Positions 645 to 49,426 are shown, numbered from the whole stretch's first letter. The stretch is 63,319 bases of DNA, filler included, from Folioceros fuciformis (GCA_049999805.1; 15 parts of 15 records of this genome joined end to end with filler, not necessarily neighbours in it); one strand, 5' to 3'. Notes: generated by a model from the sequence alone, not told the origin. Numbers and translations: made by a program.

Positions 645-2292
645 CAAATGCTCCCGCACACAGATCCACATCAGTCCTTGACCTCGTTCATGCGGATATC
701 TCAGGCAGATTACAAGTGCCATCACTGGGTGGTGCCGAGTATTACCTCACCTCACGGATGATTATAACCGTTATACTTGGACTTACCCTATGAAATATAA
801 ACAAGAGACATTTACCTTCTTTAAGGATTGGTTATTGGTTGCTCAGAGGCAAACCGGCAGATTGCTCAAGCTGTTCAGATCTGACAATGGAGGAGAGTTC
901 GTTAACAATGCCTTCACCCAGTTCTTGAACGAGCAAGGTATCATCCATCAGCTTATCGTTCCTTACACTCAACAGCAAAACAGAGTTGCTGAAAGGAAGA
1001 ACCAAACCTTGATGGGGATGACTCGTTTAATGTTGCTGTGGTCTGGCTTGCCATCACCTTACTGGGCCGAAGCCGTGGTTACGGCTACATACATTTGGAA
1101 TCGTCTGCTCACATATTCTGTTCCGGATAAAACTCCATATGAAGTGTTCTGGGAACGCAAGCCCACCATCTTGCATCTCAGGATCTTTGGATCACGTGCC
1201 TTTGCTTACATACCTGCTAAAAAACGACGTAAGTTAGATAATAGGTCACAGGACCTTATCTTCGTCGGCTATAGCGAGGTAACCAAGGCATATAAATTGA
1301 TTGATCCAGGCAGCTTACAACCTGTAATATTGCTAGAAGTGTTACATTTGTGGAGACTTTGTATCCTTCAGTCCTTGGTGAAGATGATAGACCAGTGGAC
1401 TCTGCAGACCTTACTCACCTTCTCTACACAGAAGATCATGTTGATTATCCAGACGTGCAGACCAGACTGATCTAGAGCTCCCAGCTCAATCCTACTTCCC
1501 CCCTAATCAGCCTGTACAACTTGAACAGGTTGATGAATTTGTTGAATCCGCAGCCCATGCACCTGCACATGATCCAGATCAAGAGGTAGTTAATGAAAAT
1601 GATTCTGAAGTGGATTCTAACACGAATGATGAAGATTTTCATCATGACTTTGTAGAGATAGATGAAATGGAGCCTATAGACCTATCAGCTCCTGATCTTC
1701 CACCTCAGTTTGCCATTCCTTACCCACCTCGACGATCAGATTGTCATCGTCCACCTCCTTCACAATGGACAGAGCCTCCCTACTCATCTGTGGACTTTCG
1801 TCATTTAGTGGGAGCCTACCAGCCATGTTCACATGCTGCCTCATCTTCTCCTATCCCTCCTGAGCCTATCACCCTTACAAAAGCATTTATAGGCCTTGAT
1901 AAGCAGAAATGGAAAGCAGCAGTGGATGATGAATATAAAAGCCTCATGGACAATGGCACCTGGAAGCTCGTACCTCGTCCCAAAGGTCGACGTCCAATTA
2001 CCTGCAAATGGGTATTTAAGCATAAGTTGAATGCAGAGGGAGAAATTGCAAGATACAAGGCACGACTTTGTGCCCGAGGTTTCACCCAAGTACTTGGTCT
2101 CGATTTTCAGGAGACTTTCTCGCCAGTGGTACGTTCACAATCCATTCGCCTTATGCTTGCCCTCGCTGCTGAACACGATCTTGAGCTTGAGCAGATGGAC
2201 GTTAAGACCGCCTTTCTCCATGGTGTTCTTGAGGAAGAGTTGTACATGGAGCAGCCCGAGGGCTATGAAGACCCTGCACATCTAGACTGGGT
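645..2292 (+). mobile_element. Degenerate Ty1/copia pol (integrase to RT N-terminal half)
   Basis: Motifs VLDLVHAD, RSDNGGEF, PYTQQQNRVAERKN, GTWKLVPRP, YKARLCARGFTQ and QMDVKTAFLHG. Frameshifts are present. Confidence 0.95.
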
Positions 2293-2392: not shown

Positions 2393-2472
2393 GAAAAAGA
2401 AAACCAAACCATACCACTATTAACCCTTTTTCAACCAAAACAAACTACTACCCCAAACTTTGGAGGTTCACA
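2393..2472 (-). mobile_element. LTR-A terminus abutting copia RNase H
   Basis: Junction ...CCCCAAACTTTGGAGGTTCACA|ATAGCACTGG. Confidence 0.85.
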
Positions 2473-2708
2473 ATAGCACTGGAGCCCTATCACTCGCAGA
2501 AAATCCTGTCTTTGATGCGAGAACTAAACATATTGAAGTGCATCATCACTTCATTTGTGGAGCTGTATCCTCAGGCCAAATACATTTGGAGTACATCCCT
2601 ACAAACGCAAACGCGGCATATGTGTTAACAAAAGCTCTACCTAAAGGTAAACATCATCAGCTTAAAGAAGCTTTAGAAGTCCTGGACTCCTCTTACCTTT
2701 CCAAGTAA
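2473..2708 (+). mobile_element. Ty1/copia RNase H C-terminus
   Basis: Translation NSTGALSLAENPVFDARTKHIEVHHHFI...EYIPTNANAAYVLTKAL. Confidence 0.95.
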
Positions 2709-2763
2709 AGAGAAAGGTAGATCATGATTGTCACTGTCATTAAGTGTATTTCATGTTCTAGAC

Positions 2764-3893
2764 CTAGAAGGCCATAGACACAGAATCACCGTCAGAGTTT
2801 GAGCTACTACTATTAGGCATACCAAAGAACACACAGTGAGTATCTCCATTCGTTTTTCCCTTCTGCAACTCTACGTAGTTGGGGTCAAAATTGTGTCCAG
2901 TTGGTTCCTCTCTTGTGCCGTTGTCCTTTGAAGCATAGTCCATGTCAGTCTCCTCATGCATCCTCTGTCGAAACTTTGTGAGGAGTTGATGACACTACAG
3001 CCAGGAAGTTAGTCCAGATAGCATCCTCAAACCACAGCAACAGTGTGCATAAAATTAGAGGCAAGCTAGACAGACTTACTGTAGAAAGAAATAAAGTTCC
3101 CGTTCTCTCCACCCCATTTGAACCAGTCTTCCCTCACCATTTCTATTCTTGTAACGGTGCAAACATAAGCTTCAGGAGTAAGAGGGTTGTTGATACCGTC
3201 TCCATTAGTCACCAGTCTCACAGTCTTGCTCCTTTGTCCCCTAGGTAGAGTATAGGGTCTTGGGTTGTGTAGGATTGGCAAGACAACATACTCATCTTCG
3301 ATCTGCGGAGGAAGCTTCACTGCATTAAGAGGACCCACATGTGAGAAGCAGTTGTGATCAGTGGGAGCATGCACTGGAGCAGCGGGAGCACGAGATGGGG
3401 CGTTTGAACTTACAGCTAAAACATCGGTAGCCTGAAGCTGTCTTCAAAGAGTAGAAATCTCGTGAGTGAGAAGAGCTTTGCGCTTCTCCATCTGTTGGAT
3501 TTTCTTCATCCAGTACGCGTCGGTGTGTGTGGCCTCGTGCTTATCTCGTCTCAGCCTTTTTTGGAGCATGGTTGCGGCGAAGGCGGAGAGGCGCAACATC
3601 GTGACAGTCGCATGTGGGAGCTTGCGCAGGAGCACCTTCTTCAATAGGTGCTGGTGTTGAAGCAATAACGCAAGCCGCCACCATAGCGGCAGCAGTAGAA
3701 GCAGGATCTTTAGACTTCTTTGCAGAAGGCGGATTGAGCTTTGAGCTGGAATCTAGTGTCGCAGTTGGTTGACTCGAAGACCTTGGCGCAGCTCCAGATT
3801 GAACCATCTTGTCGGAAACTTGGAACATGTAACAGGAGCTGGCGTCTTGTGTTTCTGAGCAGAGAATTTAAGCAAGAGATTTGATGACGACAT
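2764..3893 (-). pseudogene. Degenerate antisense ORF between copia pol and the 3' LTR (unknown product)
   Basis: A chain of minus-strand ORFs (3541-3828, 3444-3665, 3066-3374, 2764-2961) can be joined through frameshifts and stops. It has an S/A/P-rich N-terminus and a coiled-coil-like segment. Confidence 0.45.
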
Positions 3894-4008
3894 GCGCGAG
3901 TGGGAGCTGAAGTACCTATTTGGAGTTCCTCGTGTTCGTGCTGCGCTGGTGAACGTTCAGACTAAGTTCAGTAAAGAAATTTCGATAAAATACCTAAGCA
4001 CTTCACAA

Positions 4009-4305
4009 TGAGCGGGAGTGTTGATTAATTAATATACATTGCTATGCTTAGGGCTAGCACCTTAGGTTGTTAGGTCATTTGGCGGTTACAACTGCCAGTA
4101 CTACTTTGACATATATGTAAGGATTAGAACATACTATATACTATTCTTCCTAGACATTGTGTGTGTAGATCACGTTTAATATATGAACACAATTGAAGAA
4201 GGAACAATGTCCAAAGTAGTTATGAAAACTGAATCTAAAACGTATGTTCAAGTCTATGTAACTTAAGTAATATTATATACGCATTATTCAAACGTGCCCT
4301 AATCA
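4009..4305 (+). mobile_element. Copia polypurine tract plus 3' LTR (TGTTGATTAA...CCCTAATCA)
   Basis: TGAGCGGGAG|TGTTG is a typical copia PPT/LTR junction, followed by ~290 AT-rich bp. The right end is approximate. Confidence 0.6.
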
Positions 4306-4884
4306 GGGCTCTAATAGCCATAACCTCAACAAGCTCAATGCACGCACGATCTGACTTTCCTTTAAGACCCAATGCACAAAATTTGTGACTTTCATCAAAA
4401 TACAACTTCCTAGCAGCCCGTGGTAGTCCCTTCTACGAACAACCCCCAAACCAAGTTGATTGTCCTCCACATCCACAAGCTGCAATCAACCTCACTCCAT
4501 GTCCACACATGGTCTCCCAAATTAACATTCCTTCACTTGCAATATAGGCACATCGATGTCAATGCATGATGCAAATGGTGTGCATTTGGCAAATAGTTCG
4601 TGCACTGCAAGCCACAACGGTAGGCCCTATCCCTCAAATCTTCTAGCTCCTGCACAAACCATTCTCAAGTTAGGATGTCGACCACAAACATTTGACTCAG
4701 CTCCCTCTCCCACTGCTTAAGACTTACCCCGGTCAGCAAGTGAACTGTGCACAATGCTAGCTCCTTTGGTGCATTGTTCCTTGCAAATTGAGGTCCCGGA
4801 ATCATAAACTCACTAGTAGTGTCGTTGTCAACACCATAGGGTGGAGGCCCTTCCAAACCTACTTAGGTGTTCTACTTCCTGGAA

Positions 4885-4956
4885 GGCCTTAGCTTGGAAT
4901 GTGGCCTCAGTTGGAATGTGGCCTCAGCTGGAATATGGCCTTAGTTGGAACGTGGC
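4885..4956. repeat. 17-bp tandem repeat x4 (GTGGCCTCAGTTGGAAT)
   Basis: Read directly from the sequence. Confidence 0.85.
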
Positions 4957-4971
4957 TGTCTACAAACACCA

Positions 4972-5129
4972 TTCTCCTCACCTTGTGCAAGTTACCGACA
5001 CAAACAAAGTTTTCCTCACCTTGTGCAAGTTACCGACACAAACAAAGTTTCCCTCACCTTGTGCAAGTTACCGGCACAAACAAAGTTTTCCTCACCTTGT
5101 GCAAGTTACTGGCACAATTAAAGTTTTCC
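4972..5129. repeat. 38-bp tandem repeat x4 (TTTTCCTCACCTTGTGCAAGTTACCGACACAAACAAAG)
   Basis: Read directly from the sequence. It duplicates the NLHKVR-coding segment of the transposase. Confidence 0.9.
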
Positions 5130-5320
5130 GACTCATCCCTCATTCTCAACATGAAGACAGCATGGAGTGAGTGCACATGCCAAGGATTCGTTGTATCTAG
5201 CTCATTGCTTGCTTGCAAATCCATCATATATCCCTTGTACAAGCAGGTCCATTTCTCTTTCAATGACCTCCAAAAGTGATCAATTCTATGCAACAACCCC
5301 AACTCACAGTATGTGATGGT

Positions 5321-5625
5321 TGTCGCAATGCATCTCTCATCTCCCATCCATGCCATTGCCATCCCTCTCACCAGGCTGCTGCAATGCATCTCTCAATCTC
5401 CCATTCATGCCATTGCCATCCCTCTCACCTGGCTGTCGCAATGCATCTCTCATCTTCCATTCATGTCATTAGCATCCCTCTCACATGGCTGTGGCAATGC
5501 ATCTCTCATCTCCCATCCATGCCATTGCCATCCCTCTCACCTGGCTGTCGCAATGCATCTCTCATCTCCCGTCCACGCCATTGCCATCCCTCTCACCTGG
5601 CTGTCGCAATGTATCTCTCATCTCT
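5321..5625. repeat. 56-bp tandem repeat x~5.4
   Basis: Unit TGTCGCAATGCATCTCTCATCTCCCATCCATGCCATTGCCATCCCTCTCACCTGGC. Confidence 0.9.
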
Positions 5626-7183
5626 AGATGGCCCTCTAATGAAGTTACTACCATTCTCCCGCGGTCTAGCCCTCACAAAGTGTGCCTCCACTTGGTTGTG
5701 CTCCGTTGCAAAGTCTGAGCGGATGCACTCTGGGTGACTAAACTTTTGCACTACCTCCAAGTATGCACTGTAGATCATCTCCGCCCTCTTGTTGTTGGCT
5801 AGCAAGGCCCACGTTACAAAGTGCATGGCACCATCTATTTCTCCGTGGACCTACGTATAGAGCATATATAGCTTGTCATATGCTGCATCCATTGCCCACA
5901 GTTACTTCTCCTCCACCATGAGAAATTCATGAATTTCCACACAATTAGTACCATCAATTGCACTCACAATCCATGTGCCACATAAACATGGGCGTCCTAT
6001 TCGTATATTACACTCTTCGCATCCTCAGTCTTGCGCGCATTTCCATTGCCTCCGATTGCAAAGCCCATAGTGCATCAGCGATTTTCCATCTTGGAATGAT
6101 GTACCCTGCGTCCACAATGTAGCCTTCACCAGCCCTACCCCCAGGTCACACCATGACTGGTGATGGCAACGTGCTGCACTATGAGCGCCGCAACTGCCTC
6201 TACTGTCAATTGCTGCCCAGCATAAGCACTTGTCCACCCTTGACAAGCGCCCAGCCACCTCCTCAATGTCCTAGCCGTGCAGCCAAGCTCGTCAGCTAAC
6301 CCGTTAAGAGTCCGTCCCGATCGCCTTGTCTCCAATGCCAACTCTTCCAAAACTTCCAACGGCATCGGGCAACCCCGATGTCGTTGTGGCCGCCCTCCCC
6401 CCCCTTTGCGACAGGATGTGCTCCACTGGATGCAATGGTGGAGTCCTCCCCTCCTATCGGCTTCCACATTTTCCGACCCCGACTACTCCGTTGTACCTGT
6501 CGTATGCGCTTTGCCTCGCCTACTGTCCACAATGCCCTATCACTGTGGCAATGTCAGCCCCTCATGGTTGCACTGGAGCCAATCTTCTCCCCAATCACCT
6601 CCCCCTGGCATCTAACGTTCAGCGCCTACGCGGGCAACTTGCTTTCAGTGCCCGCTCACTTCCCTTTCTCATGGAGTGTCCCTTTTCTTCGAGTTGCCTT
6701 CCACTTCAACTGCCGGGGATTCGCTGTAAGTGGTGGCCTACGGACTAGGGGCATGGGGCTATTCGCAATCATCAATCCCGTCCCCGTATTGGTCTCCGCC
6801 CAGCAGAAAGTCTCATTTTCATTGCAATTTCGGGCATATATTCTACAAACACATAGTCCGCACCAATTGTGCTATTGAGCATCGGGTCTACGAAGGAGCA
6901 TGGGGCCATTGAAGCCACTGGGGCCCCATCGAAGCCATAGGCCTCCTCGGCTCTGCAATGTTTAAGCAGCACCATACTGCATTCACGATCTTCCTCGTAT
7001 TCATGTTACGTATAAGGGTTTGCAAAAAAACCAAGTCTATTGCTAACATAGCCACTAGCAACCTCTCACACTTCTCGCACAAAACCAAAAAAACGTTCCC
7101 AATAGCCTCCGGCCAACCCCAAGTACTTTCAGAAGACAACCACTAACGTGAATTTGCCTCATCCTCACCGTAACCACCAAAGG

Positions 7184-9022
7184 CTATGGCATCCCGTAGA
7201 CAGCGTTGTGTGCGATGGCACTCTCCAAGCGCTCTAGCATGGCTGCAACTGATGCATATCGAGGAAGCAACAATGTCCCAGTGCAAGTTCGAGCTGTAGG
7301 TAGTTAGCCCTCCGCCAAGAGGGGCACCTCACACACAGTCATCAGACCACCGTCCCCGAAGAAAACCCGATCCGTGATGAATGTGTACAATTTTGCCCTC
7401 AATGCATACGGTAGATTTCTAACTGTTGCTGTGAACATGTCTCGCATGTCCAGTGAGCAGGCTTGGAATGTTGTTGCCCTCAAGAACTCCTCTGCCCTAC
7501 AAACCTGAGATGCACAAAAGAACAAGTTGACCACCTCAACGGGCATGGTATCCACAATGGGCAATCGGATTCGAGCTTCCAGGCTATCGACGATGTGCCT
7601 GAAGCCCTCACCCACCATCCCTCCAACTGGTTGGCAACTCCGGAACAGAAGCTCCTCAGTCAGTTTCTCCTTCAAATACATCAACATCGACACGGAAGTG
7701 TGGCCCTGGCTGGAACCTAGCAAAGTGCTTGAAGAATGCAGGGTTCGCTGCAGTCACTAGAGCAACTGCTTCCTTTATGGTTGCATCTTGTTGGTCTGTT
7801 GCCGCTCGAGCGGACTTCTTAAGCAAAGACAAGACAGCCATCAGCTCCGGGTAGAAGACCTTCATATTTACCTTGAAAGCTTTCTTCAAGTAGGTGGTGC
7901 CGGGTTGGTCATGCCATGCCTTATGCACACCAAACTTCTGGCTCCCCAAGGCATGTGCAAGCGTGCCTGTTGTCATCGGCTTCGACACCTCCACACCATT
8001 TGTCAATACAAGAAACACAAGAAACCTGAAAAACTGTGCCTGCACAGCATGGCACACGCATCACATGCATTGCCTCAAACACATGCCCCACACCCCTCAG
8101 CCGTTTGTGGTTTGGTGCATACCACCATTTCGCTGAGGGCGGAAGCAGGCTTTCCTTTCTTCACGTGGCACACAGTCCTACACGAGTTATGGCCGTCCCT
8201 GGAGTCAAACACACAGTTCATGAGAATCGGGTTCTGCCAGAATTGCCGCCATGCTTCGCTGATGCACCTCCGCGTTGGCCCACAGGCGTCCACCGTTTCT
8301 GCCTCTAGCAACGCTCCTCCTCCGTGCCTGGTCATGTATTGGACCTTGAACTCAGGGAACACTCCCATGCGCTCGACGTGCCCCCTGAAATGCTCGAAAA
8401 GTGCGCTGCACTCCATGCCTGCCTCTACCTGCTTTGCAAGTACACTGGATGTGATTAGCATGGCAACCATCTGTACGCATCTAGAATCACTATTCACATG
8501 TAGCTTACCCGCAGAATAGTTGTGCGCATCGTACGCCTCCTGCGCCGCCTGCAAGTTCATTTCATCGAAGTCCACAACACGATCATGTTGGCGGGGCGGT
8601 GGCCAGTCCCGCAATTGCAGCCAATCCCGGTGGCTGGCTTGTAAGCGAAGCAACTCATCCTCCTCAACTGTGTGCTGTAGGTTGCTCTCAGCCCACACCT
8701 TGCACAAGGCTTCCAGTTCAACAACTCCCAGGTCCATACTAGGATCAATGTCTTCCAACATTTGTATGACAAAGGCTGCTGGTGATGTTCGTTGTGCAAT
8801 GAAGCATTCTATGGCTGAGACTTCAAACATGTCAAAGCCAGGGATTGACACAATTTCTCGCACCAACAACTTCCCATCTCCGTCCGCCACACCAGTTGCT
8901 TTCTTTAAGATTTGGTCAAGCCGGGTGAGGACAGCTGCGTGCTCCTCATTCCCATCCGCCCGGGCCTCTCGTACGCGCGCTTCATCGACCATCTGGTAGA
9001 AGACTTTAGGGCCGAAAGCCAA
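7184..9022 (-). pseudogene. Divergent HECT-domain E3 ubiquitin ligase, degenerate; N-terminus uncertain
   Basis: N-lobe-like FKVQY...EAETVDACGPTRRCISEAWRQFWQNP. C-lobe FTATVRNLPYALRAKLYTFIT...G*LPTARTCTGTLLLPRYASVAAMLERLESAIAHNAVYGMP*, resembling the HECT consensus LPTAHTCFNxLxLPxY. Probable intron at ~8040-8095, one frameshift at ~7660-7700 and one internal stop at 7304. Confidence 0.75.
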
Positions 9023-9126
9023 GAAAGAGACTAGTCCAGGTCATGTGCCTTAAAGGGCCGAAAGCCAAGAGAGAGACTAGTCTAGGTCATGTGTCCTAGA
9101 GGGCCGAAAGCCAAGAGAGGGGCTAG
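9008..9126. repeat. 46-bp tandem repeat x2.6
   Basis: Unit AGGGCCGAAAGCCAAGAGAGAGACTAGTCTAGGTCATGTGTCCTAG, starting at 9008, 9054 and 9100. Confidence 0.85.
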
Positions 9127-9243
9127 CCTTGCAAATATCGATCNNNNNNNNNNNNNNNNNNNNNNNNNNNNNNNNNNNNNNNNNNNNTTAATTAATTAAN
9201 NNNNNNNNNNNNNNNNNNNNNNNNNNNNNNNNNNNNNNNNNNN

Positions 9244-11104
9244 GAGAAAGGGACAACATTGTCGAGAGGAGAGGCACTGCTCACAGCGTGATCAGGTTCG
9301 CGAGCAATGAAATGTCCGAGGGGAATGGGACCGGTGAGGCCCTTGCCCGTCAAATTCCTGTAAGCACAGACCGGGCATGAAGCAGGCGGCGTCATGAATT
9401 ACACCAGCCTGTCCTGCAAAGGACCCTTTCAGACACTCGCTTGGCTGCAGAAGAGAAGTGTTGGGGCAACATACAGTACGGTCGCACGGTCCCCCGTGCA
9501 ATTGAGCTCGTCCCTCGGTATGGGAAAGCAAAGATCCCCGACGCATAGCGGGAATCGGATTGCACGATTGATTCCGGCGAGCGCAACCGCTGGAAAGTGG
9601 CGACACGGCGGTGGCCATCAGTGAGTTGATGGAAAGCAGGCAGAGCGGCGGAAACGATGAGAAACACACGTTATGAGAATAGCAGCTCACCATCGTCTAC
9701 ATCAGTTCCAGCAGCCACTGGTATGACGAAGTAGGATTCAAAGGTATTGATCATAGGGTCTTTAGAGGACAAGGGGTCCTTGGTCAAGTAGAAGAAGAGA
9801 CTGGGATCGTCGCTAGCCGGAAGCCCGAAGTCAACGGTCCCGAACTGGAAGACTTGGAAGGGCTCGCCAGATCCCATCGAGGCCAAATCCAGAGTGAAGT
9901 ACTCGCCGTTAGCTGGCTGCCGTAGGAAGTTCGACCGCACCTGCATCACCCGACTGCATAGTCCCAGGCGCACACGCAAGCCCAATGAGCAAGGGGCCAT
10001 TAATTGCTAGGCCAGCAGCAGTATCCCATAGGAAGCTCCGGGTCCGACGTACCTCTCTCCTGCTGCCAAAACTTCGAGCTCGGCGAAGGTCTTGCTCAGG
10101 TAGAAGGTGAAGATAGTGAGAGGAGTGCGCAGCGATACGGTGTACGACATCGTGTCCGGGGAAGTGATGCCGGTCTGCATCACCAAGTTAGGGAAAAAGT
10201 CCCGCTGCTGGGAGACGTCGTAGACCATGGTCTGATTCGGGTACAGCGGTGCCGCCAAAGGAGTCAATGGGCTCCCTGTAGGCAAAGCGAAGGCTGGCCA
10301 GAGGCGGTCGTCAACGTCTTGCGGGTATCTGCGCGGCCAAGCAGAGCAGCAAGCAACGTAAGGCCCGCTCCCGCAGGGCGGCAACGTTGAGCAGGCTCCC
10401 GAGCCGCAGAGCAAAGCCCGCGGAACGACACGGCCAACCTCAGCACGGAGCCTGTCGGGGCCCCGAAGTCCCGCCTCATCACGAGGGCCAGGAGGTGGGC
10501 AGCCGGCTCAGCGAAACGTCGCAGGTACGAGGGGGAATAGGGCACCGCCCTCAGCTCCAAGGAGTTGATGAAGGGAGTGTCGGTGTCCACGGTGCGAATG
10601 AGGCACACGCTCACCAGGGCTTGGTCGTCACCACGAAGGCCTCCAAGGACTTGGGAATGCCGGACTCGTTCACCGTGTCGATATGTATGGCCTCCCAAAA
10701 CGTCGCGTCGATCGCCAGCTGCACACACCAACACCCCCGTCGTGGAATCTGCACCCCACTCCTTCAATTCCCCCGAACCACATTCACAAGCCCTCACTTA
10801 CCCGAAACGACAGCGTCCCAGACACTGGCGACGGGATGAAGTTCCCAAACAAGAACCAGGCGCGGATAAGGTACTGCGTATCGTTCACCACCGGCACGGT
10901 GTAGCAGTTCTTCCGGGGCGCGGAATCCGGGGGGAAGTATTTCATCGTGAGCAGATCGGCTGTGGCGTTCACCCCGGGGGCCACATTTCCGATGAGCCCG
11001 GTGGAGATGTAGTTATCGGGCTCAAACAGGAGCCCGGTGTCCGGGTTAGTGTAGGCCGCGGCACCAGGCACGGAGCCGCAGTCCACATTGATGAATCCTG
11101 TCAC
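9244..11104 (-). pseudogene. Malectin-like domain LRR receptor-like kinase (LRR-I type) ectodomain, partial, with one apparent frameshift
   Basis: GFINVDCG, KYFP...RKNCYTVPV...YLIRAWFLFGN, VSVCLIRT..TPFINSLELR, RYPQDVDDRLW, PMINTFESY, then the LRR NLTGKGLTGPIP. GT-AG introns are present. Confidence 0.85.
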
Positions 11105-11281
11105 ACCAAAACCGCCATGAGTCCGAGACCGATAGCGCCAGAGGCTGGCACACTATCCGCAGGCCCTGAGCTCCGCACCTGNNNNNNNNNNNNNNNNNNN
11201 NNNNNNNNNNNNNNNNNNNNNNNNNTTAATTAATTAANNNNNNNNNNNNNNNNNNNNNNNNNNNNNNNNNNNNNNNNNNNN

Positions 11282-12815: not shown

Positions 12816-13165
12816 CGCAAGAAGCTTCCTACAGATTAGCTTAAGCTAATCTAAACTAATGATACTTAACTAGATACTAATCTTAGACTAAACACATTAG
12901 CCTAAGCACATTGGGCTTTAATAACCCTACACCCGGTACCGGACCCAAACTTTCCCAGGTCTGGGACCAAACCTATACCCACTCTCATAACCAAACCAAC
13001 TATTTCCTGGTCAATTAACCTAATTAGCACAAAGAAAAATAGAAAAAATAACCAGAAAATCAAAGAAAATTAGGGAAAATAAATAGAAAAAGAAAACCAA
13101 ACCATACCACCATTAACCCTTTTTCAACCAAAACAAACTACTACCCTAAACTTTGGAGGTTCACA
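12816..13165 (-). mobile_element. LTR-A terminus (variant)
   Basis: Ends ...CTTTGGAGGTTCACA at 13165 and is collinear with 430-644. Confidence 0.85.
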
Positions 13166-15032: not shown

Positions 15033-17492
15033 CTAGGGCTGGATGGTTATGTAGTCCACCAGACCCAGGGCTTCAGCATGGAAGTTATGCTTCAGCATGG
15101 GTAGACTTTTAGTGAGCACATCCGTAGTATTCAGCTCGATGGGGACGTGCTCAATGCTAACCACCTTCCTCTCCACTGAGTGTCGAACAAAGCGGTGATG
15201 TATCTCGATGTGCTTGGTCCGAGCGTGGAAGCGCGGATTCCCCACCAAGGCAATAGTGGACATATTGTCACAGTAAACCACAGTAGGGTCCTTCTGCACA
15301 AAGTTCAAACCACCAAGGAAAGAGCGTTCCCACTCAGCCTCCTTAGCTGCATCTGTAAGGGCCTTGTATTCTGTCTCGGTTGAGGACAATGCTACTGAAA
15401 CTTGTTTCTTGGAGCTCCAGTTAACAGCTGCACATGACAAGAGGAAACAATAGGCAGAGAGACTGCGGCGGTGATCGGGATCGGTGGCCCAATCTGCGTC
15501 GCAGAAACCCTGAAGACTGACAGCTTCATCTGTTCCAGCTCGGAAGCAGAGTCCATATGTGGAGGTACCCTTGAGGTAACGCAATATTCTTTTAACGGCT
15601 ACCCAGTGCACCTGACCAGGATCCTTAAGAAATTGTGAGATAGCAGAGACTGAATGCTGAATATCGGGTCGGGTCCAGCAACTAATGTAGTTGAGGCACC
15701 CAACAGCATGCCGATAAGGCACAAGGCGCATAAGCTCACGGTCTGCGTCATCCTGAGGGCTCTGCCTAGAGGTAAGCTTCAAACCAACACTACCAGGTGT
15801 ACTCATTGGTTTGGCATCCTGTAGGTTAAAACGTCGAAGAGTCTCACCAATATATTTTGTTTGATGAAGGATAAGGGTGCGGTGAGCCCTGTCGCGGATA
15901 AGCTGCATGCCGAGGACAAAGGTTCGAGCTCCGATGTCCTTCATATCATAGCGCTTATGCAGCATCCCTTTCACCCAGTCCAACAGCTCCCTGTTGTTAG
16001 AGGCTAGGATAGCGTCGTCGACATAGAGGGCTAATATAACCATGTGACCACCCTTGTTGTAGATGTACACGTTAGTATCAGCCGGATTTTGGATGAACCC
16101 AATGGACTTCAAGTACTTGTCGATACACTTATACCATTCTCGGGCACTTTGCTTCAAACCGTAAATTGTTTTCTTCAACTTACATACCCAGGTGGGATGT
16201 GCAGGATCCACGAAACCCTCAGGCTATTCCATATAGATATCCTCCTCAAGGTCTCCGTACAGAAAAGCTGTAGACACATCCATCCAGAGTAAATCTGAGT
16301 TAGCTGGACTTGAAACGGTGATAGGAGATCGGACTGAAGCTGGCGACGGTGACAACTGTGAACGAGGCTGTGACCCAAGCTGTTGAGGCTGCGCAGTGGG
16401 TGGTGATCGAGTGCCGGGCTGCTGAGATGTAGCTCCAGGGTGCACAAATCCACCCCCTGAACGGCCAGCAGGCATAGGAGAGGCATGAGGCAGTTCATAA
16501 AAGACATCCTGGGGATACTCAGCACGGGAATCAGATGCATCGGTGTCCAGAGAGGCAGACGACACAGGCAGAGAGGGGAACTCAAAAGCAAGCCCATTGA
16601 AGGAAGGGGCAGGAGAGTGAAGTTCCCTAAAGTTGACGCTGCGGGCAAAAACCAGGCTCCTTGATGTCGGGTCGTAAAGCTTGTAAGCTTTGGATTCCTC
16701 CCCATAGCCAACAAAGACAAGGGGTCGTGCTTTATCATCCAGTTTCTTACGTTGTTCAGGATGGATAAGAGCATAGGCTGGGGAGCCAAAAACTCGAAGG
16801 TGAAGGAGACTGGGCTTGCGCTGCCACATCGCTTCAAAAGGTGTGCGATCAGGCAAAGCTGAGGCAAGCAACCTGTTGAGAATATATGTAGCAGTCACGA
16901 CAGCCTCGACCCAATACGCCTTGCTCAAACCAGACCATGTTAGCATACTCCTAGTCATATTAAGAAGAGTTTGATTCCTACGCTCACCAACCCCGTTTTG
17001 TTGCTGGGTGTAAGGAATACTAAACTGACGAGTAATCCCCTGTGCTGCCAAGTACTCATTGAAGGCAGAATTAACAAATCAGTCCCGTTGTCGGACCTGA
17101 GGTAGCGGAGAAGGCAGCCTGTTTGACGCTGGATCATAACCAGCCACTCCTGGAAGAACTGAAAAGTGTCGGACTTGCGTTTCATTGGGTAAGTCCAAGA
17201 GTATCTGCTATAAGTGTCAGCAATTGTCAAGTAGTAGAGAGAGCCACCCAGAGAGGCAACATGGATCTTCCCACAAATGTCAGCATGGACAAGTTCTAAA
17301 ATATTGGAAGTTCTATGTGCAGGCGTCGAAGGAAAAGGCAACTCCTTCTACTTAGATACAATGCAGGCTGTACAACTAGGTAACTCTCGAAAGCACTTGG
17401 GAGAGGTTCCCGATAACAATTAAGCTTAGACATCCGAACTAACTTGTCCTGGTTGGCATGACCTAGACGTGCATGCCAAAGTTGGGCAAGTG
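15033..17492 (-). mobile_element. Copia pol (GAG-pre-integrase, integrase, partial RT, RNase H), degenerate
   Basis: LWHARLGH, ELVHADICG, RSDNG, ALYVDD, GFCDADWA, ARTKHIEI. One stop in ME*PEG and an internal RT deletion. Confidence 0.95.
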
Positions 17493-17592: not shown

Positions 17593-17630
17593 CCAAAACA
17601 AACTCCTACCCCAAACTTTGGAGGTTCACA
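17593..17630 (-). mobile_element. LTR-A terminus
   Basis: Junction ...TTTGGAGGTTCACA|CTTGCC into copia RT. Confidence 0.85.
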
Positions 17631-19286
17631 CTTGCCAATGTTTGCGACCAGGGTTAGAGAGGAAACGGGAAACAAAACCAGCGGCCTGGGAAATGTCTGG
17701 ACGGGTCCATCCAGCCAGGTAAAGGAGACTGCCTACGGCTTCTCTATAGGGAATAGTAGACATGTCCTCTTTTTCTGATTCAGTCCTTGGGCAATCCTCC
17801 AAAGAGAGTTTTTCTCCAGCTGATACAAGTGTTGAAACAGGGGTAAGATCAACTAGGTTAAACTTGGTTAACAATTGACGGATGAAGTGGGACTGATGTA
17901 TTATAACACTGTCTGCTGCAGGATCAAAGAGAAACTGGATCCCTAAGGCAAATTTAAGGGGTCCCACATTAGTCATGTCCCATTCTTGGGATAAGGCTTG
18001 CTTGATTTCTTGTAGGATCTACTCATCACTAGTGAAAAGGAAGTTATCATCAACGTAAAGTGCTATAATGCATATCTGATTCTTCCTCTTCAAAACATAT
18101 ACGCTACTGTCAGCGTCAAGAGGTTCGAAATCCAAAACCTTCAACTTTTCATCTGCCCGTGCATTCCAAATACGTGCAGATTGTTTTAGTCCATAGAGAG
18201 ACTTTAACAGCTCACATACTTTGTCTTTGTCAATGATGTACCCTTCAGGTTGGTGCATGAAAATAATCTCGTCCAAAGGCCCGTTCAAAAAGGCCGTCTT
18301 GACATCCATTTGATGGACCAAAAACTTATTGGCCACTGCATAGCAGAGTAATATTCTCATTGAGGTAGGTTTTACGACGGGACTGAACGTTTCGTTATAG
18401 TCCAGCCCTTGAATCTGGGTATAGCCCCTTGCGACTAATCGGGCTTTATAGCAAGCCACTGATCCATCCGGGTTCAATTTCAATTTAAATACCCACTTAG
18501 AGGTAATTGCTTTCCTTCCGGGTGGTAGGTCCACTAATTTCCATGTTCCATTTGATATCAAACTGTTGTATTCAGAATCAATTGCTTTTTGCCACTCAGT
18601 CTTTTGGGGGCCTGAAATGCTTCACGGTATGTAGCAGGTGTGTCAGGTGGTTCCATGATTGTGGAGGCAACAGAACTGGCGAAAACTGCAAGACTTGAAC
18701 GTGGTGCATTGGTGGGTTGATTCTCATGGGACCTAGAGACAAGGGTATCACCAGGTTGATAGGGTGGATTGAGCCATTCAGGTGGAGGGCGATGTATGCG
18801 GGCTGACCTTCTCAAAGGTATGGTGTCTTGCACTAAATCTAAATCAGCGATCGGGTCTAGAGGTTCTGCTGGTTCGACAAATTCAGGTTCAGGTTCAGGT
18901 TCATCTAAAATGTCTAGATCTTAATCGTCTAGAATAGGAATTGGGGCTGGTGCTAGAGGTGCTACATGTTGACCTGCGGGGGCTGGTGCAGCTACTAGGG
19001 GAGGTTGAATAGCTGCTTGATTATGCACTGCTACATCAGGCTGTACAGCATCTAGAAGGATGTCTGGAATGAAAGTAACAGTGTCAATATGTTCTGTATC
19101 ATCTGCAGCTGAATTTGTTGGTGTGTGTCCAAAAGCTGATGGTTTAGACAAGGGCATATGACTTGAAACAGACTGAAGATGACGTGCAAGGATGAAGCTT
19201 TCATTAAATTTGACACTGCGAGCCAAAGTTAACTGCCTAGTGTAGGGATTGTATAATTTGTATCCCTTTGACTGTTCTGAATATCC
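17631..19286 (-). mobile_element. Copia pol fragment (integrase end, linker, RT), degenerate
   Basis: GTWKLVDLPPG, YKARLVARGY, QMDVKTAFLNG, ALYVDDN, YREAVGSL. Confidence 0.95.
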
Positions 19287-19386: not shown

Positions 19387-20220
19387 AAGTTCCACTCATT
19401 TATGCTTTCTCAAGGCTACAAACGTAGTGATGAAGATCATTGTCTCTATATGATGCAAGCTAAGGATGGAAGCTTGCTCATTTTGGTCCTCTATGTAGAT
19501 GATATGCTAATTGTTGGGAATAGTAGTGATGAGATTTCAGCGTTGGAGTCAAAGTTGAATGCTCGCTTTGACATGATAGACTTGGGAGAGGCCAGCCATA
19601 TTCTTAGTATGCGTATTCATCGAGACAGACATAAGCATTTGCTTTACTTGTCTCAGACTGAATACATTAACAAGATGCTTCAACATTTCAATATGGAGAA
19701 GGGGAAGGTATTGAGTACTTCGTTGCCTCCATATGTGAAACTTTCGCAAGGATTGCCCAAGCTCTGTGGATGACAAAACTGAAATGGAGAAGTTTCCATA
19801 CTCATCAGCTGTAGGGAATTTGATGTATGCAATGATTGCTACACGTCCTAACATTGCTTTTGCAGTGGGAGTGGTTAGCAAGTTTATGTCAAACCCTAGA
19901 AGGAAGCATTGGGAGGTAGTGAAAGGAGTTATGAGGTACTTGAATGGTACAAAAGCTTTGTGCATATGTTTTGGTAGAGAAGATGCATCTGTCGTGGGAT
20001 ATACGGATGCTGATTATGCAGGGGATATGGACAAAAGGAGGTTCACATGAGGTTATGTCTTCATGTGCACTAGAGGGGCAGTCTCATGGCGATCTCGTTT
20101 GCAATCGTGCATAACGCTATCTACAACAGAGGCCGACTATGTTGTAACGACTAAGGCTTGCAAGGAAGCCATGTGGCTTGCTTTAGTGGGAGACTTGGGG
20201 ATCAAGGTTGAGCTGCCAGT
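19387..20220 (+). mobile_element. Copia RT/RNase H fragment of a different family, degenerate
   Basis: LVLYVDDMLI, PYSSAVGNLMYAM, GYTDADYAGDMDKRR, LSTTEADY. Confidence 0.95.
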
Positions 20221-20848
20221 TGTGAACCTCCAAAGTTTGGGGTAGTAGTTTGTTTTGGTTGAAAAAGGGTTAAAAGTGGTATGGTTTGATTTTCTTTTTC
20301 TACTTACTTTCCCTAATTTTCCTTGATTTTCTGGTCATTTTTCCTATTTTTCTTTGTACTAATTAGGTTAATTGACGAGGAAATAGTTGGTTTGGTCCCA
20401 GACCTGGGAAGGTTTAGGTTCGGTACCAGGCCATAGGGTTGGGAAAGTTTGAGTCTAGGTCTGGTGATTAGTTTAATATTAATTAAAGATATATAATATC
20501 AAATGATTAAATAATAAAATAAGGGTTTGAACATAGGAACGGGTATCTGGGTATGTCAGTGTCAGGGGTCAGGGTCTGACGATAGGCTGGCTGATTGCTT
20601 GGCTGGCATGAACGGCCATGGAGGCCTTGCCCTAGCTAGAGCTAGAGGCAGGGGTTGCGGTCGTCCCCATCCCTTTTCCCCCTTTCTCCCTTCCTCCTCC
20701 ATTCCCTTCTTGCCCTCTCTTCTTCTTCTTCCCCTTCCCTCTCATCTCCCTTTCCGTCTTTTTGTGCCTCTTCTTCTTTGGATCTAGATTGCAGGCAGGA
20801 CGAGGGATCGACGGGTGATGGGAGCGAATGTGTGCAGGAGAGGAGGCT
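20221..20848 (+). mobile_element. LTR-A 5' portion
   Basis: TGTGAACCTCCAAAGTTTGGGG starts at 20221. Confidence 0.85.
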
Positions 20849-22863: not shown

Positions 22864-24360
22864 ATGGAGCTGCTGGCGAGCGAGCTGTGGACGCTAGTGC
22901 TGCTTGCAGCTTTGGGACTCCTTGTAACCGTGGCAGCTGCCCCACTACAGGCTGATTTCTGGAACTGCAATCCCAGGCCGGTGTGGGGTAATCCCCAGAC
23001 GGCCATTCTCCAGCCCAACTGCTGCACGCTGGAGGCGCTGATGCGCAAGCCCGAGCCGATGTACAAGACGTGGCAGCAGTACTTAGAACAGAGTGGTCTT
23101 CGGGATCGGCCGATGCGAGTGCGTCCAGCTGCGCATCTCATCGCAGACAACGAAACCTACCTGCAGCAGCTGGATCTGGCGTTCAGGCTGCACAAGGCGC
23201 TTCCAGACGCCGATCCGAGGTCCCAGATTTCGCAAATGAACTTCCACTGCGTTTATGGCTCTCCTAACGTGTCGAGCCAGGCTGGTTACGAGCAGTTGAG
23301 CTACGTCACGCACAACAATTGGTACTTCTTCCCGTTCCACCGCTGGTAAGCTCTAATGGAGCAGGACCACCTGGACCTGGTTTGCGTTTTTAGCTCAAGT
23401 GATGGCATTGCTCCTGCCATTGCTATTGCACCCGGTGCTGCAGATTCCATCTCACCCTGGCACTTCGGCCTCGGCTGAAAAATAGGTTCACCTTCTTCTT
23501 CGAGAGGATACTGGCCAAGTTGGTGGGTGATGAATCCTTTGTTCTACCTTTCTGGAACTGGGACAATCAGAGCGCCGACTCCAACCATCTTCCCAACACT
23601 GTCCCCCACTACTACCGCAATCCTGACAAGTACCCAGGTCTGTATCACAAGTATCGCGACCCGCGCCACCGACCTGAAGAAGAGCCTGCCGTCATCAACC
23701 TCCTTCCCCGATCTGTCGAATCAGGGTTTTCTCCCACGACACCGCAGGAGGTGGCTCGGGCTCGTGCACTGAACAAGGCGCAACTGCGAAGCTTGATCGT
23801 GGACGCGACCGCCAACGGTAGCGGATCCGGAGATTTCCTCGGGTACCCGCTGCGATTGGGCGACGACCTTCCCAATGACACCGGGAGACTCAAATTCGAG
23901 GGTCAGCCGCACATGGCTGTGCATCTGTGGGTGGGAGACCCGGCTTATGGGTTTGCGGACATGGGGCTGGTGTATCATTCCGTTCGTGACCCAATTTTCT
24001 TTCCCCACCATGCCAATGTTGACAGGATGTGGAACGTCTGGATGGTAGGAATGTTAACGTTGCAAGAGATGGAAGCATGGACCCTCCCATGCTAGACAGT
24101 CTGACTAACTGGTGTTGTGCATTGTTCAGGGACTCGAGGGCAGGCGCAACTATGATGACCCCGACTTCCTGGACGCTGCCTTCTACTTCTACGACGAGAA
24201 TGCGGAGATTGTGAAGGTCACTGTTGCCGAGAGTCTCGATTCTGACCTCCTGAGATACACCTTCCAAGATGTGGAGAACGAATGGGTGACCTACGATGCA
24301 TCAACCGATTCAGCCCTTTTCGTTGACCACCCATTTCCAGCACATTCCCAAGCCTTATGA
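22864..24360 (+). CDS. PPO: Polyphenol oxidase (type-3 copper protein) with signal peptide; 3 exons (22864-23345, 23486-24044, 24130-24360)
   Basis: CuA site FHCVY...THNNWYFFPFHRW, LPFWNWD, CuB site PHMAVH...DMG...DPIFFPHHANVDRMW, and DWL-type DPDFLDAAFYFYDEN. The GT-AG introns are in phase. Confidence 0.92.
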
Positions 24361-46217: not shown

Positions 46218-46420
46218 AATGTTCCGCCCTTTACGCGCTATACCAACTGTTCATCAACGGCATCCCCAGCTCCTAGTCTTCGTTGAGTCTTCCTCTTCTG
46301 GAGGAGCTCAAATACCAGGCGCAGGATATGAGCCTGTACAGGAAAGAAGCAACACAAGTTGAACCAGCAAGTACATGATATAGCGTCTGCTCCAGCTAGT
46401 AACGCATCCCGTAGTTCAGC

Positions 46421-49400
46421 ATGTTGGCACAACCCAGTGTCTTGGCCTGGGACGCCACAATCTCAAGGGAAGGTCAGGATGTGCACCGGCAAGCGTTGAG
46501 GAAACACGAGGAGCTGCAGACGAGAGGGGGCAAGCCCAGCAAGCAGATCCTGCTCAGCGTGCTGAAAGCATGTGGGAGCCTTGTGGATCTGGAGTATGGC
46601 AGAAAAATCCATGCCGACATGGTGGCACACAACTGGGTATCGGATGTGTTTTTGGGAACAGCTCTGGTTGGGATGTACGCAAGATGTGGGAGCATGGTGG
46701 ATGCGGAAAGATTTTTCCACGGGCTGGCCCAGCCCAGTGTGGTTCTCTGGAATGCCATGATCTCGGGCTACGTTCAGCAGGATCAATGTGACAAGGCCTT
46801 GCAACTGTACAGGAAAATGGTGCAGGGAGGCGTAAAGCCAGACAACCGCACGTTTGTTAGTGTGCTGAAAGCTTCTAATGGTCTAGCAGGGAGGGAGCGA
46901 TCTGCATCCAGGAAGACTGGTTGGCTGCACCAAGTGAAGGAGGTTCAGTCTGAGGTGGTTGCGAATGGGTATCAGATGGACCTGTTTGTTGGGAATAGTC
47001 TGGTGTCAGCGTACCTGAGCTGTGGGAGCACACGGGATGCAGAGCGCGTGTTTGACAGAATGGGCCGACGCGATGTAGTGACATGGACAGCCATGATCGC
47101 AGGATTTGCTCAGGAAGGAGACGGTGAGAAGGCCTTGGACTTCTATGCAAGGATGCAGGAAGATGGAATTGTGCCTAACGACCGGACGTTTGTAAGTGTT
47201 CTCAAGGCTTGTGGCAGTTTGGCCGGTAAGGGTGAGCGGCAATGGTATCTTGAGAAGGCGAAGGACATACATGCTGAGGTCTTGGGACGAGGATTGCAAG
47301 GTGATGTCTTTGTGGGAGCCAGTCTAGTGAGCATGTACGTCAAGCTGGGAAGCATGGTGGATGCACAGGATGTCTTCGACATGCTGCCCCAGCGGAATGT
47401 GGTGGCTTGGAATGCAATGCTATCAGGGTATGCCCAGCATGAGCAGGGGGATGAGGCTTTTCAGCTGTATGACCTCATGCAAGCACAAGGGCTGAGGCCA
47501 AACGACCGCACGTTTGTCAGCATGCTCAAGGTGTGCGGGGGCTTAGCGGTTGGGGAAGAGACTACACTGGTGGATGGGGAGTTGCTCAAGCTGGAGTCTC
47601 TGCAGAGGGGACTTAAGGTGCATGCTGAACTGGTCTCAGGACAACATCAGTCTGACCTGTTTGTGGGTGCAACTATTGTTGACATGTATGTGAAGTGCGG
47701 TTCAGTAGTCCATGCCGAGCTGGTTTTCCACACCTTGCCAACGCACGATGTAGTGTCGTGGACAGCAATGATCACAGGATACGCCCAGCAAGCACATCCT
47801 GGAGGACGCGCCCTAGAACTGTATGACAAAATGCAAGCACAAGGAATGAAGCCGGATAAGCGGACCTTTGTGAGTGTCCTCAAATCTTGTGGCAGTCTAG
47901 CAGCCTTGGAGCGACCTGTTCTTCTTGATGGCCAACGGATCAAAGCAAGATGCCTGCACCAGGGCAAGAAGATACACGCAGATGTGGTGGCACTTGGCTT
48001 GGAGTCAGAAACATTTGTTGGAGCTGCACTGATTGACATGTACGCAAACTGCGGGAGCCTGCTGGATGCACGGCATGTGTTTGACAGCTTGCCATCGAGG
48101 GATGTCGTGTCCTGGAATACGTTGATTGTTGGATATGCCCAGCAGCAGCAAGGTGAGAAGGCTCTGCAACTATACAAGCAAATGTTCTCGTCAGGCATCA
48201 AGCCAGATGCGTGGACCTTCGTGAGCGTGCTCAAAGCATGGAGCAGCACGGCAGCCACAGAAGACGCGTCGCATCATGCAAGTGGGTATGAGCAACACGA
48301 GAGCCTGCGCAAGGTGCAGGACATACATGAGGACATTGTTAGAGCTGGGTATGGGTCAGACTTGTTCGTTGCCAACACTCTCATCAATCTGTACGCAAAT
48401 CATGGGAGCATGATAGATGCGTGCCGGGTATTCGACCTGCTCCCCGTTCGGGATGAGGTGTCATGGACAACATTGATAGCAGGATACGCTGCTCTAGAGG
48501 GCAGTGAGGAAGCCATGCTAGTGTACCAGGCGATGCGAAAGCAGGGTATCTCACCAAATAAGGCTACCTTTCTCAGCATCCTTAGAGCTTGCAGCAACAG
48601 GGGTTGCTTGAATATGTGCTCTCAGATCCATTCCGAGATCGTTGAGGCCGGAATCCAGTCTGACGCACAAGTAGCAACCACTCTAATTCATGCCTATGGT
48701 AAATGTGGAAGCATGGTGGATGCTAGGAATGTGTTCAACACCATGGCACGACATGACGTGTTTTCGTGGAGTGCGCTAATTGCAGGATATGCCCGACAAG
48801 GTGAAGGTGAAAAGAGTCTGGAGTGCTTCGAGGAAATGCAACTGGCAGGCATACCGCCAGACGGTGTGACATACTTGTCCGTCCTTGTGGCATGCAGCCA
48901 TTCAGGCTTGGTGAAGGAAGGTTTGGAGTGTTTTGAGGCCATGGGGAGGGACCATAGCTTGACAGTAACGCAGGACCACTACGTAGCCTTGGTTGACATC
49001 CTTGGACGCGCTGGTATGTTTACCGAAGTGGAGACTGCACTGACAGGGATGACTGTGGAGCCCAATCTGGCGCTGTGGCTGTGCTTGCTTGGAGCATGCC
49101 GAAAGCATAGCAATGTGGATCTCGGTAGAAAAGCCTTCGAGCGTGCTGTAGCTCTGGATCCAGGAAACAGTGCCCCGTATTTAGTAATGTCCAACATATT
49201 TGCAGATGCTAACATGATGGAAGATGCACGAAAGATCCTGAAACTAGGGAGGACTGCTGTCGCGAACAAGAAGCAGCCTGGCTTGAGCTGGGTTGAGCAT
49301 AATCAGACACTGCACTCGTTTCTGGTGGGAGATAAAAGCCACCCAGCTCACTCGCAAGTGATTGAAAAGGTAAAAGCCCTTCACTCAGAGATCAATCAGG

Positions 49401-49426
49401 AGCAAGAGAGAGTGTCAGCGACTTGA
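46421..49426 (+). CDS. PLS-class pentatricopeptide repeat protein with long-L (LL) motifs, ending E1-E2-E+ (no full DYW)
   Basis: 1001-aa uninterrupted ORF of P-L-S triplets. It ends KKQPGLSWVE...HSFLVGDKSHP with no HxE/CxxC. Confidence 0.95.
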   Translation: MLAQPSVLAWDATISREGQDVHRQALRKHEELQTRGGKPSKQILLSVLKACGSLVDLEYGRKIHADMVAHNWVSDVFLGTALVGMYARCGSMVDAERFFHGLAQPSVVLWNAMISGYVQQDQCDKALQLYRKMVQGGVKPDNRTFVSVLKASNGLAGRERSASRKTGWLHQVKEVQSEVVANGYQMDLFVGNSLVSAYLSCGSTRDAERVFDRMGRRDVVTWTAMIAGFAQEGDGEKALDFYARMQEDGIVPNDRTFVSVLKACGSLAGKGERQWYLEKAKDIHAEVLGRGLQGDVFVGASLVSMYVKLGSMVDAQDVFDMLPQRNVVAWNAMLSGYAQHEQGDEAFQLYDLMQAQGLRPNDRTFVSMLKVCGGLAVGEETTLVDGELLKLESLQRGLKVHAELVSGQHQSDLFVGATIVDMYVKCGSVVHAELVFHTLPTHDVVSWTAMITGYAQQAHPGGRALELYDKMQAQGMKPDKRTFVSVLKSCGSLAALERPVLLDGQRIKARCLHQGKKIHADVVALGLESETFVGAALIDMYANCGSLLDARHVFDSLPSRDVVSWNTLIVGYAQQQQGEKALQLYKQMFSSGIKPDAWTFVSVLKAWSSTAATEDASHHASGYEQHESLRKVQDIHEDIVRAGYGSDLFVANTLINLYANHGSMIDACRVFDLLPVRDEVSWTTLIAGYAALEGSEEAMLVYQAMRKQGISPNKATFLSILRACSNRGCLNMCSQIHSEIVEAGIQSDAQVATTLIHAYGKCGSMVDARNVFNTMARHDVFSWSALIAGYARQGEGEKSLECFEEMQLAGIPPDGVTYLSVLVACSHSGLVKEGLECFEAMGRDHSLTVTQDHYVALVDILGRAGMFTEVETALTGMTVEPNLALWLCLLGACRKHSNVDLGRKAFERAVALDPGNSAPYLVMSNIFADANMMEDARKILKLGRTAVANKKQPGLSWVEHNQTLHSFLVGDKSHPAHSQVIEKVKALHSEINQEQERVSAT

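Follow-up and report, generated by a model that had tools for sequence, protein, structure and literature searches.

The window analysed here is a 63,319-nt stretch of DNA from Folioceros fuciformis (GCA_049999805.1), in which 15 contigs are spliced together by N44-TTAATTAATTAA-N44 linkers (2293-2392, 9144-9243, 11182-11281 and 11 others). Adjacency across linkers is meaningless, and arguments from neighbourhood are valid only within the contig 2393-9143 (6,751 bp). The minus strand of this contig carries the two genes that are the subject of this study, a HECT-like gene and, about 700 bp further along the same strand, a DDE transposase gene. A first examination of the DNA, made from the sequence alone (the sequence-only reading), had reported these genes on one contig and one strand at this spacing, and Pfam bears this out (PF00632 with an E value of 1.3e-10 and rva_4 with about 1e-7).

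Open reading frames (ORFs) around both genes were scanned with Pfam as 12 ORF pieces (E<=1). In addition, contigs from two DNA runs (X1 and X2) and from a run of a different study (X3) were compared with the window at 85% likeness or more; such contigs show presence, not absence, and their summed depths are not copy numbers. The RNA label of X3 is only a guess; we treated this run as RNA-derived on the strength of four joints, each of which skips a stretch that begins with GT and ends with AG on the gene strand and that X1 and X2 cross without a break. X3 has no contig over 6009-6912 or over parts of the transposase, and these gaps were not counted as evidence. The coordinates of the features are collected in Table 1.

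Table 1. Features of the contig 2393-9143 (positions counted from the first letter of the window)
Feature	Position	Strand	Evidence and remarks
Ty1/copia pol C-terminus	2424-2705	+	BLASTP E 8e-18, 42% identity over 72 aa, to ORF 15033-16223 (RVT_2)
Decayed transposase, putatively of IS3EU/GingerRoot type	4533-6482	-	Weak helix-turn-helix, linker, DDE core in two pieces, Cys/His-rich tail, TGA 4533-4535
78-nt GT-AG intron, in phase	4650-4727	-	X3 joint; transposase 3' part
17-bp repeat x3	4894-4944	-	Transposase tandem repeat
38-bp tandem units	4962-5151	-	At exon end
56-bp tandem units	5283-5619	-	Between the two rva_4 pieces; each GT...AG on gene strand
In-frame TAA	6008-6010	-	9 codons upstream of WHMD; X1/X2 contigs over 5582-6438, 0 differences
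HECT-like gene, transcribed, spliced, disabled	7184-8992	-	ATG 8990-8992 to TAG 7184-7186; X3 contigs
HECT C-terminal half (N-lobe end and C-lobe)	7184-7753	-	PF00632; TAA 7304-7306; LPTARTC Cys codon 7283-7285
367-nt alternative GT-AG intron	7505-7871	-	X3 joint; skips the internal frame change in phase
83-nt GT-AG intron	8040-8122	-	X3 joint, 169 letters on shorter side; joins 8075-9040 to 7656-8060 in phase
80-nt GT-AG intron	8429-8508	-	X3 joint, 255 letters on shorter side
46-bp tandem repeat x3	9008-9126		Directly upstream of HECT-like gene ATG; contig end 9143

The transposase gene

Transposases of the IS3EU/GingerRoot kind bind terminal inverted repeats through an N-terminal helix-turn-helix (HTH) domain and cut and join DNA with an integrase-like DDE core, which leaves 6-bp target duplications. 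Two of the 12 pieces matched rva_4 (PF24764, "integrase core domain"), namely 5593-5850 (E 9.7e-8, profile positions 26-101) and 5054-5392 (E 1.7e-7, profile positions 103-169). The two matches cover consecutive parts of the profile and identify an integrase-like DDE core. HTH_23 was matched over 6135-6482 with an E value of 0.003 and 17.7 bits, under the Pfam cut-off of 24.6, and no zinc-finger family was reported among the 12 pieces. The sequence-only reading had described an HTH plus an rve-type DDE gene running from 6467 to about 4560; the core stands, the HTH is weak, and the end of the gene is placed at the TGA listed in Table 1. By the consensus of such cores, the catalytic residues would be D1 in WHMD and D2 in IRSDF, with HRID at the third position supplying D and not E. 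In the Atlas, 5593-5850 has as neighbours rve clusters from bacteria and one rva_4 cluster from eukaryotes, rich in cnidarians; these serve as leads only. A search of longer proteins with the same piece yielded no match among its 11 candidates (0/11).

From these domain matches we infer that the gene belongs to the IS3EU/GingerRoot superfamily; that rva_4 corresponds to IS3EU/GingerRoot is our assumption, drawn from the taxon range of rva_4. The sequence-only reading had held this type of transposase to be unfamiliar in land plants, which proved mistaken: Selaginella lepidophylla is the plant from which GingerRoot elements were described, and bryophytes have them as well (PMC6839031). They measure 3.9-12.9 kb (mean 8.9 kb; PMC6839031), have terminal inverted repeats of 100-150 bp, and form one lineage with IS3EU, characterized by TA..TA ends and 6-bp duplications (PMC10045372). 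The structure of IS3EU is described as largely unexplored (PMC11934779). The range of the lineage comprises Selaginella lepidophylla, bryophytes, cnidarians, fish and fungi, and a non-seed land-plant host lies within what has been published (PMC6839031, PMC10045372). The gene in the window resembles these relatives in its integrase-like DDE core, a weakly indicated HTH-like N-terminal region, its multi-exon structure and in that no HHCC zinc finger was detected. Unlike them, the window copy is dead, TA..TA repeats and 6-bp duplications were not found around it, and its placement in the clade, made by domain match, is tentative.

The sequence-only reading had noted similar decay in both genes (stops, frame breaks and tandem duplications), and this was confirmed by the in-frame TAA of each gene and by the repeat arrays (Table 1). 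The transposase frame also changes near 6140. The stop in the transposase is the same in X1 and X2, and that in the HECT-like gene is the same in X1, X2 and X3. Each break recurs unchanged in contigs from two or three runs, which rules out assembly errors. The gene would accordingly read as an IS3EU/GingerRoot-type transposase that was inactivated by a TAA, a frame change and tandem duplications, and it is represented by at least one spliced RNA contig. The 56-bp units resemble a multiplied mini-intron plus a few exon bases.

X1 and X2 each contain an additional transposase contig with the joints 5242>5769 and 5811>5961, which is a second related form. At most, this hints at kin of the transposase that lack a HECT neighbour. 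Separately, an X3 contig matches 4452-4559, just past the transposase stop, with 11 differences and departs from the window on either side of this stretch; it may be the transcript of a related copy located elsewhere.

The HECT-like gene

In HECT ligases, the Cys of an LPxxxTC motif receives ubiquitin from an E2 enzyme, and the ligase then transfers it to a substrate. The HECT-like gene contains three long minus-strand ORFs (8075-9040, 7656-8060 and 7304-7753). None of the 12 unmodified ORF pieces matched HECT in the Pfam scan at E<=1 (0/12). The PF00632 match was obtained when 7184-7753 was read with its single in-frame TAA as X (41.8 bits, profile positions 161-304 of 306), and the final 39 codons on their own (7187-7303) also matched, with an E value of 8e-8 (2/3 pieces tested matched). 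After the TAA, the sequence reads LPTARTC...YGMP and then stops. A profile built from the HECT piece and its three nearest relatives retrieved 77 PDB sequences at E<=0.01, with HECTD3 at the top (1.4e-9). All of the 60 matches listed, out of these 77, are HECT ligases, and LPTARTC aligns to the LPxAxTC of HECTD3 and HUWE1. By tblastn, every one of six HECT proteins (P0001-P0006) matched 7193-7693 exclusively; P0006, of 1,396 aa, carries a HECT domain according to precomputed Pfam annotation. These matches establish the C-terminal half of a HECT domain.

The sequence-only reading had placed a divergent HECT gene at 9022-7184. Pfam supports its C-terminal half; the ORFs upstream gave no HECT match, and the start codon is the ATG at 8990-8992. 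The N-lobe with its E2-binding subdomain was not detected in 8075-9040 or 7656-8060 by Pfam or by BLASTP against P0006, and a phmmer search of PDB at E<=10 and tblastn of P0004 and P0006 found no HECT in these ORFs either. At the level of motifs alone, a putative likeness to the N-lobe (EAETVDACGPTRR) may be present. Structure prediction of the 321-aa N-terminal ORF, run without an alignment, was uninformative (mean predicted local distance difference test score, 36.6). Both upstream ORFs are parts of the same spliced transcript as the HECT C-terminal part.

Contigs of X3 covering 7055-8974 show no differences from the window. X1 and X2 run unbroken across all four stretches that X3 skips, three of them in the HECT-like gene and one in the transposase (Table 1), which upholds the earlier claim of spliceosomal introns in both genes. 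Spliced RNA arises from both genes. Removal of the 80-nt intron breaks the long ORF, and its retention leaves the ORF open. The spliced joint of the 367-nt intron has a depth of 7.3 in X3, compared with 18.6 for the unspliced X3 contig. When the 80-nt intron is kept and the 83-nt and 367-nt introns are removed, a single frame of 428 codons is obtained, which continues until the TAA at 7304-7306. This TAA precedes the catalytic Cys by 6 codons. A change of frame separates 7656-8060 from 7304-7753. No uninterrupted frame leads through the catalytic Cys, since the TAA is present in DNA and RNA contigs alike and frame breaks occur as well. Because of the TAA before the Cys and the frame breaks, the RNA cannot yield a catalytic ligase, despite being transcribed and spliced. 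An alternative genetic code, in which both in-frame TAA codons would be sense codons, was also considered; the land-plant host and the frame breaks speak against it, and it was rejected.

The domain resembles those of canonical HECT proteins (HECTD3, HUWE1, HACE1, the NEDD4 family and plant UPLs) in that the C-lobe aligns and has the Cys of LPxAxTC and a C-terminal helix. It differs from them in its low similarity (41.8 bits to Pfam, and a best PDB E value of 1.4e-9 that was reached with a 4-sequence profile), in the small size of the predicted protein (about 450-570 aa), in its undetectable N-lobe and in the stop ahead of the Cys. A further difference is the motif FITD, which stands in place of F-x-T-G, the usual HECT form. 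FITD and a ...YG tail are common to the window and to P0001-P0003 only, three relatives that are unnamed fragments.

Among 1,835,955,588 representative proteins, five matched the HECT piece at E<=1e-3, not one of which reached E<=1e-10. The closest relative scored 44.1 bits with 32% identity (range among relatives, 29-36%), and the five nearest relatives are all unnamed singletons, encoded on contigs of 922-2,860 bp, with HECT as their sole domain. No plant-like HECT was found among these proteins even at E 1e-3. The sequence-only reading had proposed a comparison with plant UPL1-7, and the gene proved not to be UPL-like: high similarity to the UPL1-7 HECT domains was not seen, the best score overall being the 44.1 bits above. 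Because the best scores are so weak, the gene is neither a plant UPL orthologue nor a recent UPL copy. A word-based search with the 321-aa N-terminal ORF found no homologue among 1,751 candidates, and an Atlas search with the unmodified ORF 7304-7753 gave no usable match. In a search of longer proteins, the HECT profile (A2) found one weak match, with HECT only, among 7,999 scored candidates. Judged by these searches, the HECT-like gene is a lineage-restricted orphan with a very divergent C-terminal HECT domain.

These comparisons bear on one possible origin of the gene, Pack-type capture, in which a GingerRoot-like element would have taken up a host HECT fragment at the DNA level. Of 77 Selaginella GingerRoot elements, 22 hold captured gene fragments (PMC6839031). 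These fragments span 84-1,654 bp with introns included (PMC6839031), and about 570 bp, no more, of the gene in the window are demonstrably HECT, as capture would allow. The published fragments are, however, 79-98% identical to their parents (PMC6839031), and no second contig at 85% or more was found for 7118-9067. Such a parent was not seen among the DNA contigs, which show presence and not absence, and the protein searches found no plant-like HECT at E<=1e-3. Moreover, the HECT part closes a spliced transcription unit of 1.8 kb, which has a start and a 3' end of its own. We therefore regard capture as highly improbable.

One mobile element or two neighbouring genes

The sequence-only reading had joined the two genes in a single two-gene mobile element. 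Its domain calls stand; the step from two domains to one element found no positive support, either in termini or in a second linked copy. Searches of 4050-4700 or 2393-4700 against 6450-7200 or 8950-9143 found no inverted repeat above chance around the transposase alone or around both genes, and this is a weak test because the contig is cut. In the four tests, 115, 37, 110 and 104 of 200 shuffles reached the observed inverted-repeat score, and the ten inverted pairs that were found are all short (14-22 nt). On the side of the transposase, a Ty1/copia pol C-terminus adjoins (Table 1). Several diverged DNA contigs match 2619-4200, and the sequence that follows pol, to about 4060-4130, is probably the 3' long terminal repeat. 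The copia element may have inserted into or beside a transposon relic, and the left end of the relic may then lie beyond the copia insertion.

No second copy of either gene was found on the other 14 contigs with 8 protein pieces, and X1 and X2 each contain one contig that matches 7118-9067. Scans of metagenome contigs for similar loci gave 123 pattern matches with A2 and 92 with the transposase piece, none of which was confirmed. Scans of viral contigs gave 91 and 3, respectively, again with none confirmed. In the collections searched, which cover eukaryote genomes poorly, the two domains were not found together in any protein or locus.

This bears on a variant of the neighbour account given below, in which a GingerRoot-type element landed by chance next to a HECT-like gene that is itself repeat-borne, as part of an unrecognised repeat of another kind, or that is a young orphan in decay. 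The gene does lie between repeats, with the 46-bp array and its extra DNA contigs upstream and copia further downstream. Against this, a second HECT copy was seen neither among the contigs of the DNA runs nor on the other 14 contigs; we consider this account very unlikely. As to the array itself, a "goes back 92" joint occurs in both X1 and X2, and several extra DNA contigs match 8947-9143. The joint and the extra contigs suggest that the array varies in copy number or occurs elsewhere.

The domains, introns, breaks and transcription described above are shown directly. The account that we favour, at slightly better than even, is that these are two dead genes in repeat-rich land-plant DNA, to be treated on this evidence as neighbours. 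The first would be the inactivated IS3EU/GingerRoot-type transposase. The second, directly upstream on the same strand, would be a lineage-restricted gene with a divergent HECT domain at its C-terminus, and its product would be non-catalytic. The former activities of the two genes, and their independence of one another, we infer.

Several points weigh against this account. The terminus test is weak, as only 150 bp of contig remain upstream of the HECT start before its end at 9143, with copia on the other side. The test for other copies is weak too, as the contig is cut and the search was of contigs and not of a complete genome. The HECT-like gene is no ordinary host gene: among the proteins searched it has no relative above 44 bits, and no homologue of its N-terminal ORF was found. 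Long open frames remain in it, and it was probably under constraint until recently. It has decayed about as far as the transposase and shares its strand, 700 bp upstream of it, and cargo of the same element would be expected to show this pattern. The span 4533-8992 (4.5 kb) falls within the published sizes of GingerRoot elements (PMC6839031), and fungal IS3EU elements bear accessory genes (PMC12730594).

The same points favour the alternative of a two-gene IS3EU/GingerRoot-type transposon, in which the HECT-like gene was an accessory gene that was inactivated together with the transposase. On that account, the substrates of the ligase would have been the transposase or factors of host repair or silencing. 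Besides the shared strand, the spacing and the size, both genes have short GT-AG introns (78-83 nt) and similarly light decay, and the HECT-like gene is an orphan far from host-type HECTs, as is often the case for transposon-borne genes. There are also precedents for such an arrangement. Fungal IS3EU elements carry TET/JBP and alpha-kinase genes (PMC12730594), and ubiquitin- and SUMO-pathway domains, in the form of Ulp1 and OTU hydrolases, occur in Ginger1, Mutator-like elements (MULEs) and Helitrons (PMC2836005). On the other side, shared termini were not found, no second HECT copy was seen although a second transposase-like contig form exists, and the searches found no protein or locus that combines both domains. 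The literature examined is likewise silent on the point. Supplementary tables aside, the word "HECT" has no occurrence in PMC10045372, PMC6839031, PMC12730594, PMC2836005, PMC11934779 or 10.1101/2021.09.26.461848, and a search for papers that pair HECT or G2E3 with transposons found nothing relevant. The transposon-borne ubiquitin-pathway domains in that literature are all hydrolases, not ligases. Taken together, we regard the two-gene transposon as possible but doubtful.

The TET/JBP-bearing IS3EU elements of rust fungi and truffles belong to the same superfamily and have extra genes between their termini that are thought to act against silencing (PMC12730594). Their cargo, unlike the HECT candidate in the window, for which no termini and no second copy were found, is seen in complete copies from one terminal inverted repeat to the other in several species. 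Ginger1 (OTU/Ulp1), MULEs (Ulp1) and Helitrons (OTU) are likewise DNA transposons tied to the ubiquitin/SUMO pathway. Their hydrolases, however, are mostly fused to the transposase (PMC2836005), whereas the candidate in the window would be a separate gene of the ligase type.

The wider claim, that a HECT ligase gene was part of a cut-and-paste transposon of GingerRoot/IS3EU type in a non-seed land plant and that this locus is the last, recently inactivated copy of that element, is a tentative one that we hold to be rather unlikely. If true, the ligase would, within the literature examined, be the first E3 enzyme known to be encoded by a transposon, in contrast to the known Ulp1/OTU hydrolases, and the few FITD-type HECT fragments from environmental assemblies would have been carried by related elements. 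With HECT as cargo, a ligase would join the ubiquitin-pathway enzymes found on transposons and would provide a handle on the dealings of integrase-type DNA transposons with host repair and silencing. The locus also offers a dated, dead example of a putative IS3EU/GingerRoot element in a land plant, and an orphan HECT lineage with an FITD motif, an undetectable N-lobe and almost no relatives in 1.8 billion proteins.

Other contents of the window

On the other contigs, 18 ORFs were scanned for domains. The scan found a pentatricopeptide repeat (PPR) protein with an E motif, malectin-like domains, a tyrosinase domain and Ty1/copia elements, and on the basis of these the host is a land plant. The GC content at third codon positions (0.54-0.62) and the observed/expected CpG ratio (about 0.65) of the HECT-like and transposase genes are the same as those of host genes in the window. 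Neither measure separates the two genes from host genes or copia elements, and there is no sign in composition of a recent foreign origin of either gene. Rfam gave no matches across the whole window, and NCBIfam gave no meaningful match.

The PPR protein is an intronless PLS-type protein of 1,003 aa (46415-49426, plus strand) with an E motif, as in plants with organelle RNA editing. The tyrosinase domain lies in an ORF at 23403-24095 (plus strand), and the malectin-like domains lie at 10007-10797 (minus strand). Pieces of Ty1/copia integrase and reverse transcriptase are present on separate contigs at 682-2290 (plus strand), 15033-17078 (minus strand) and 18019-18621 (minus strand).

The contig that carries the two genes starts with an 80-bp A/C-rich sequence (2393-2472), of which copies with 97-99% identity are present on four other contigs (10-89, 565-644, 13086-13165, 17593-17630 and 20220-20300). 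This sequence has an enormous summed depth in the DNA runs and many different continuations from 2472/2473: a short repeat, or the end of a repeat, of very high abundance.

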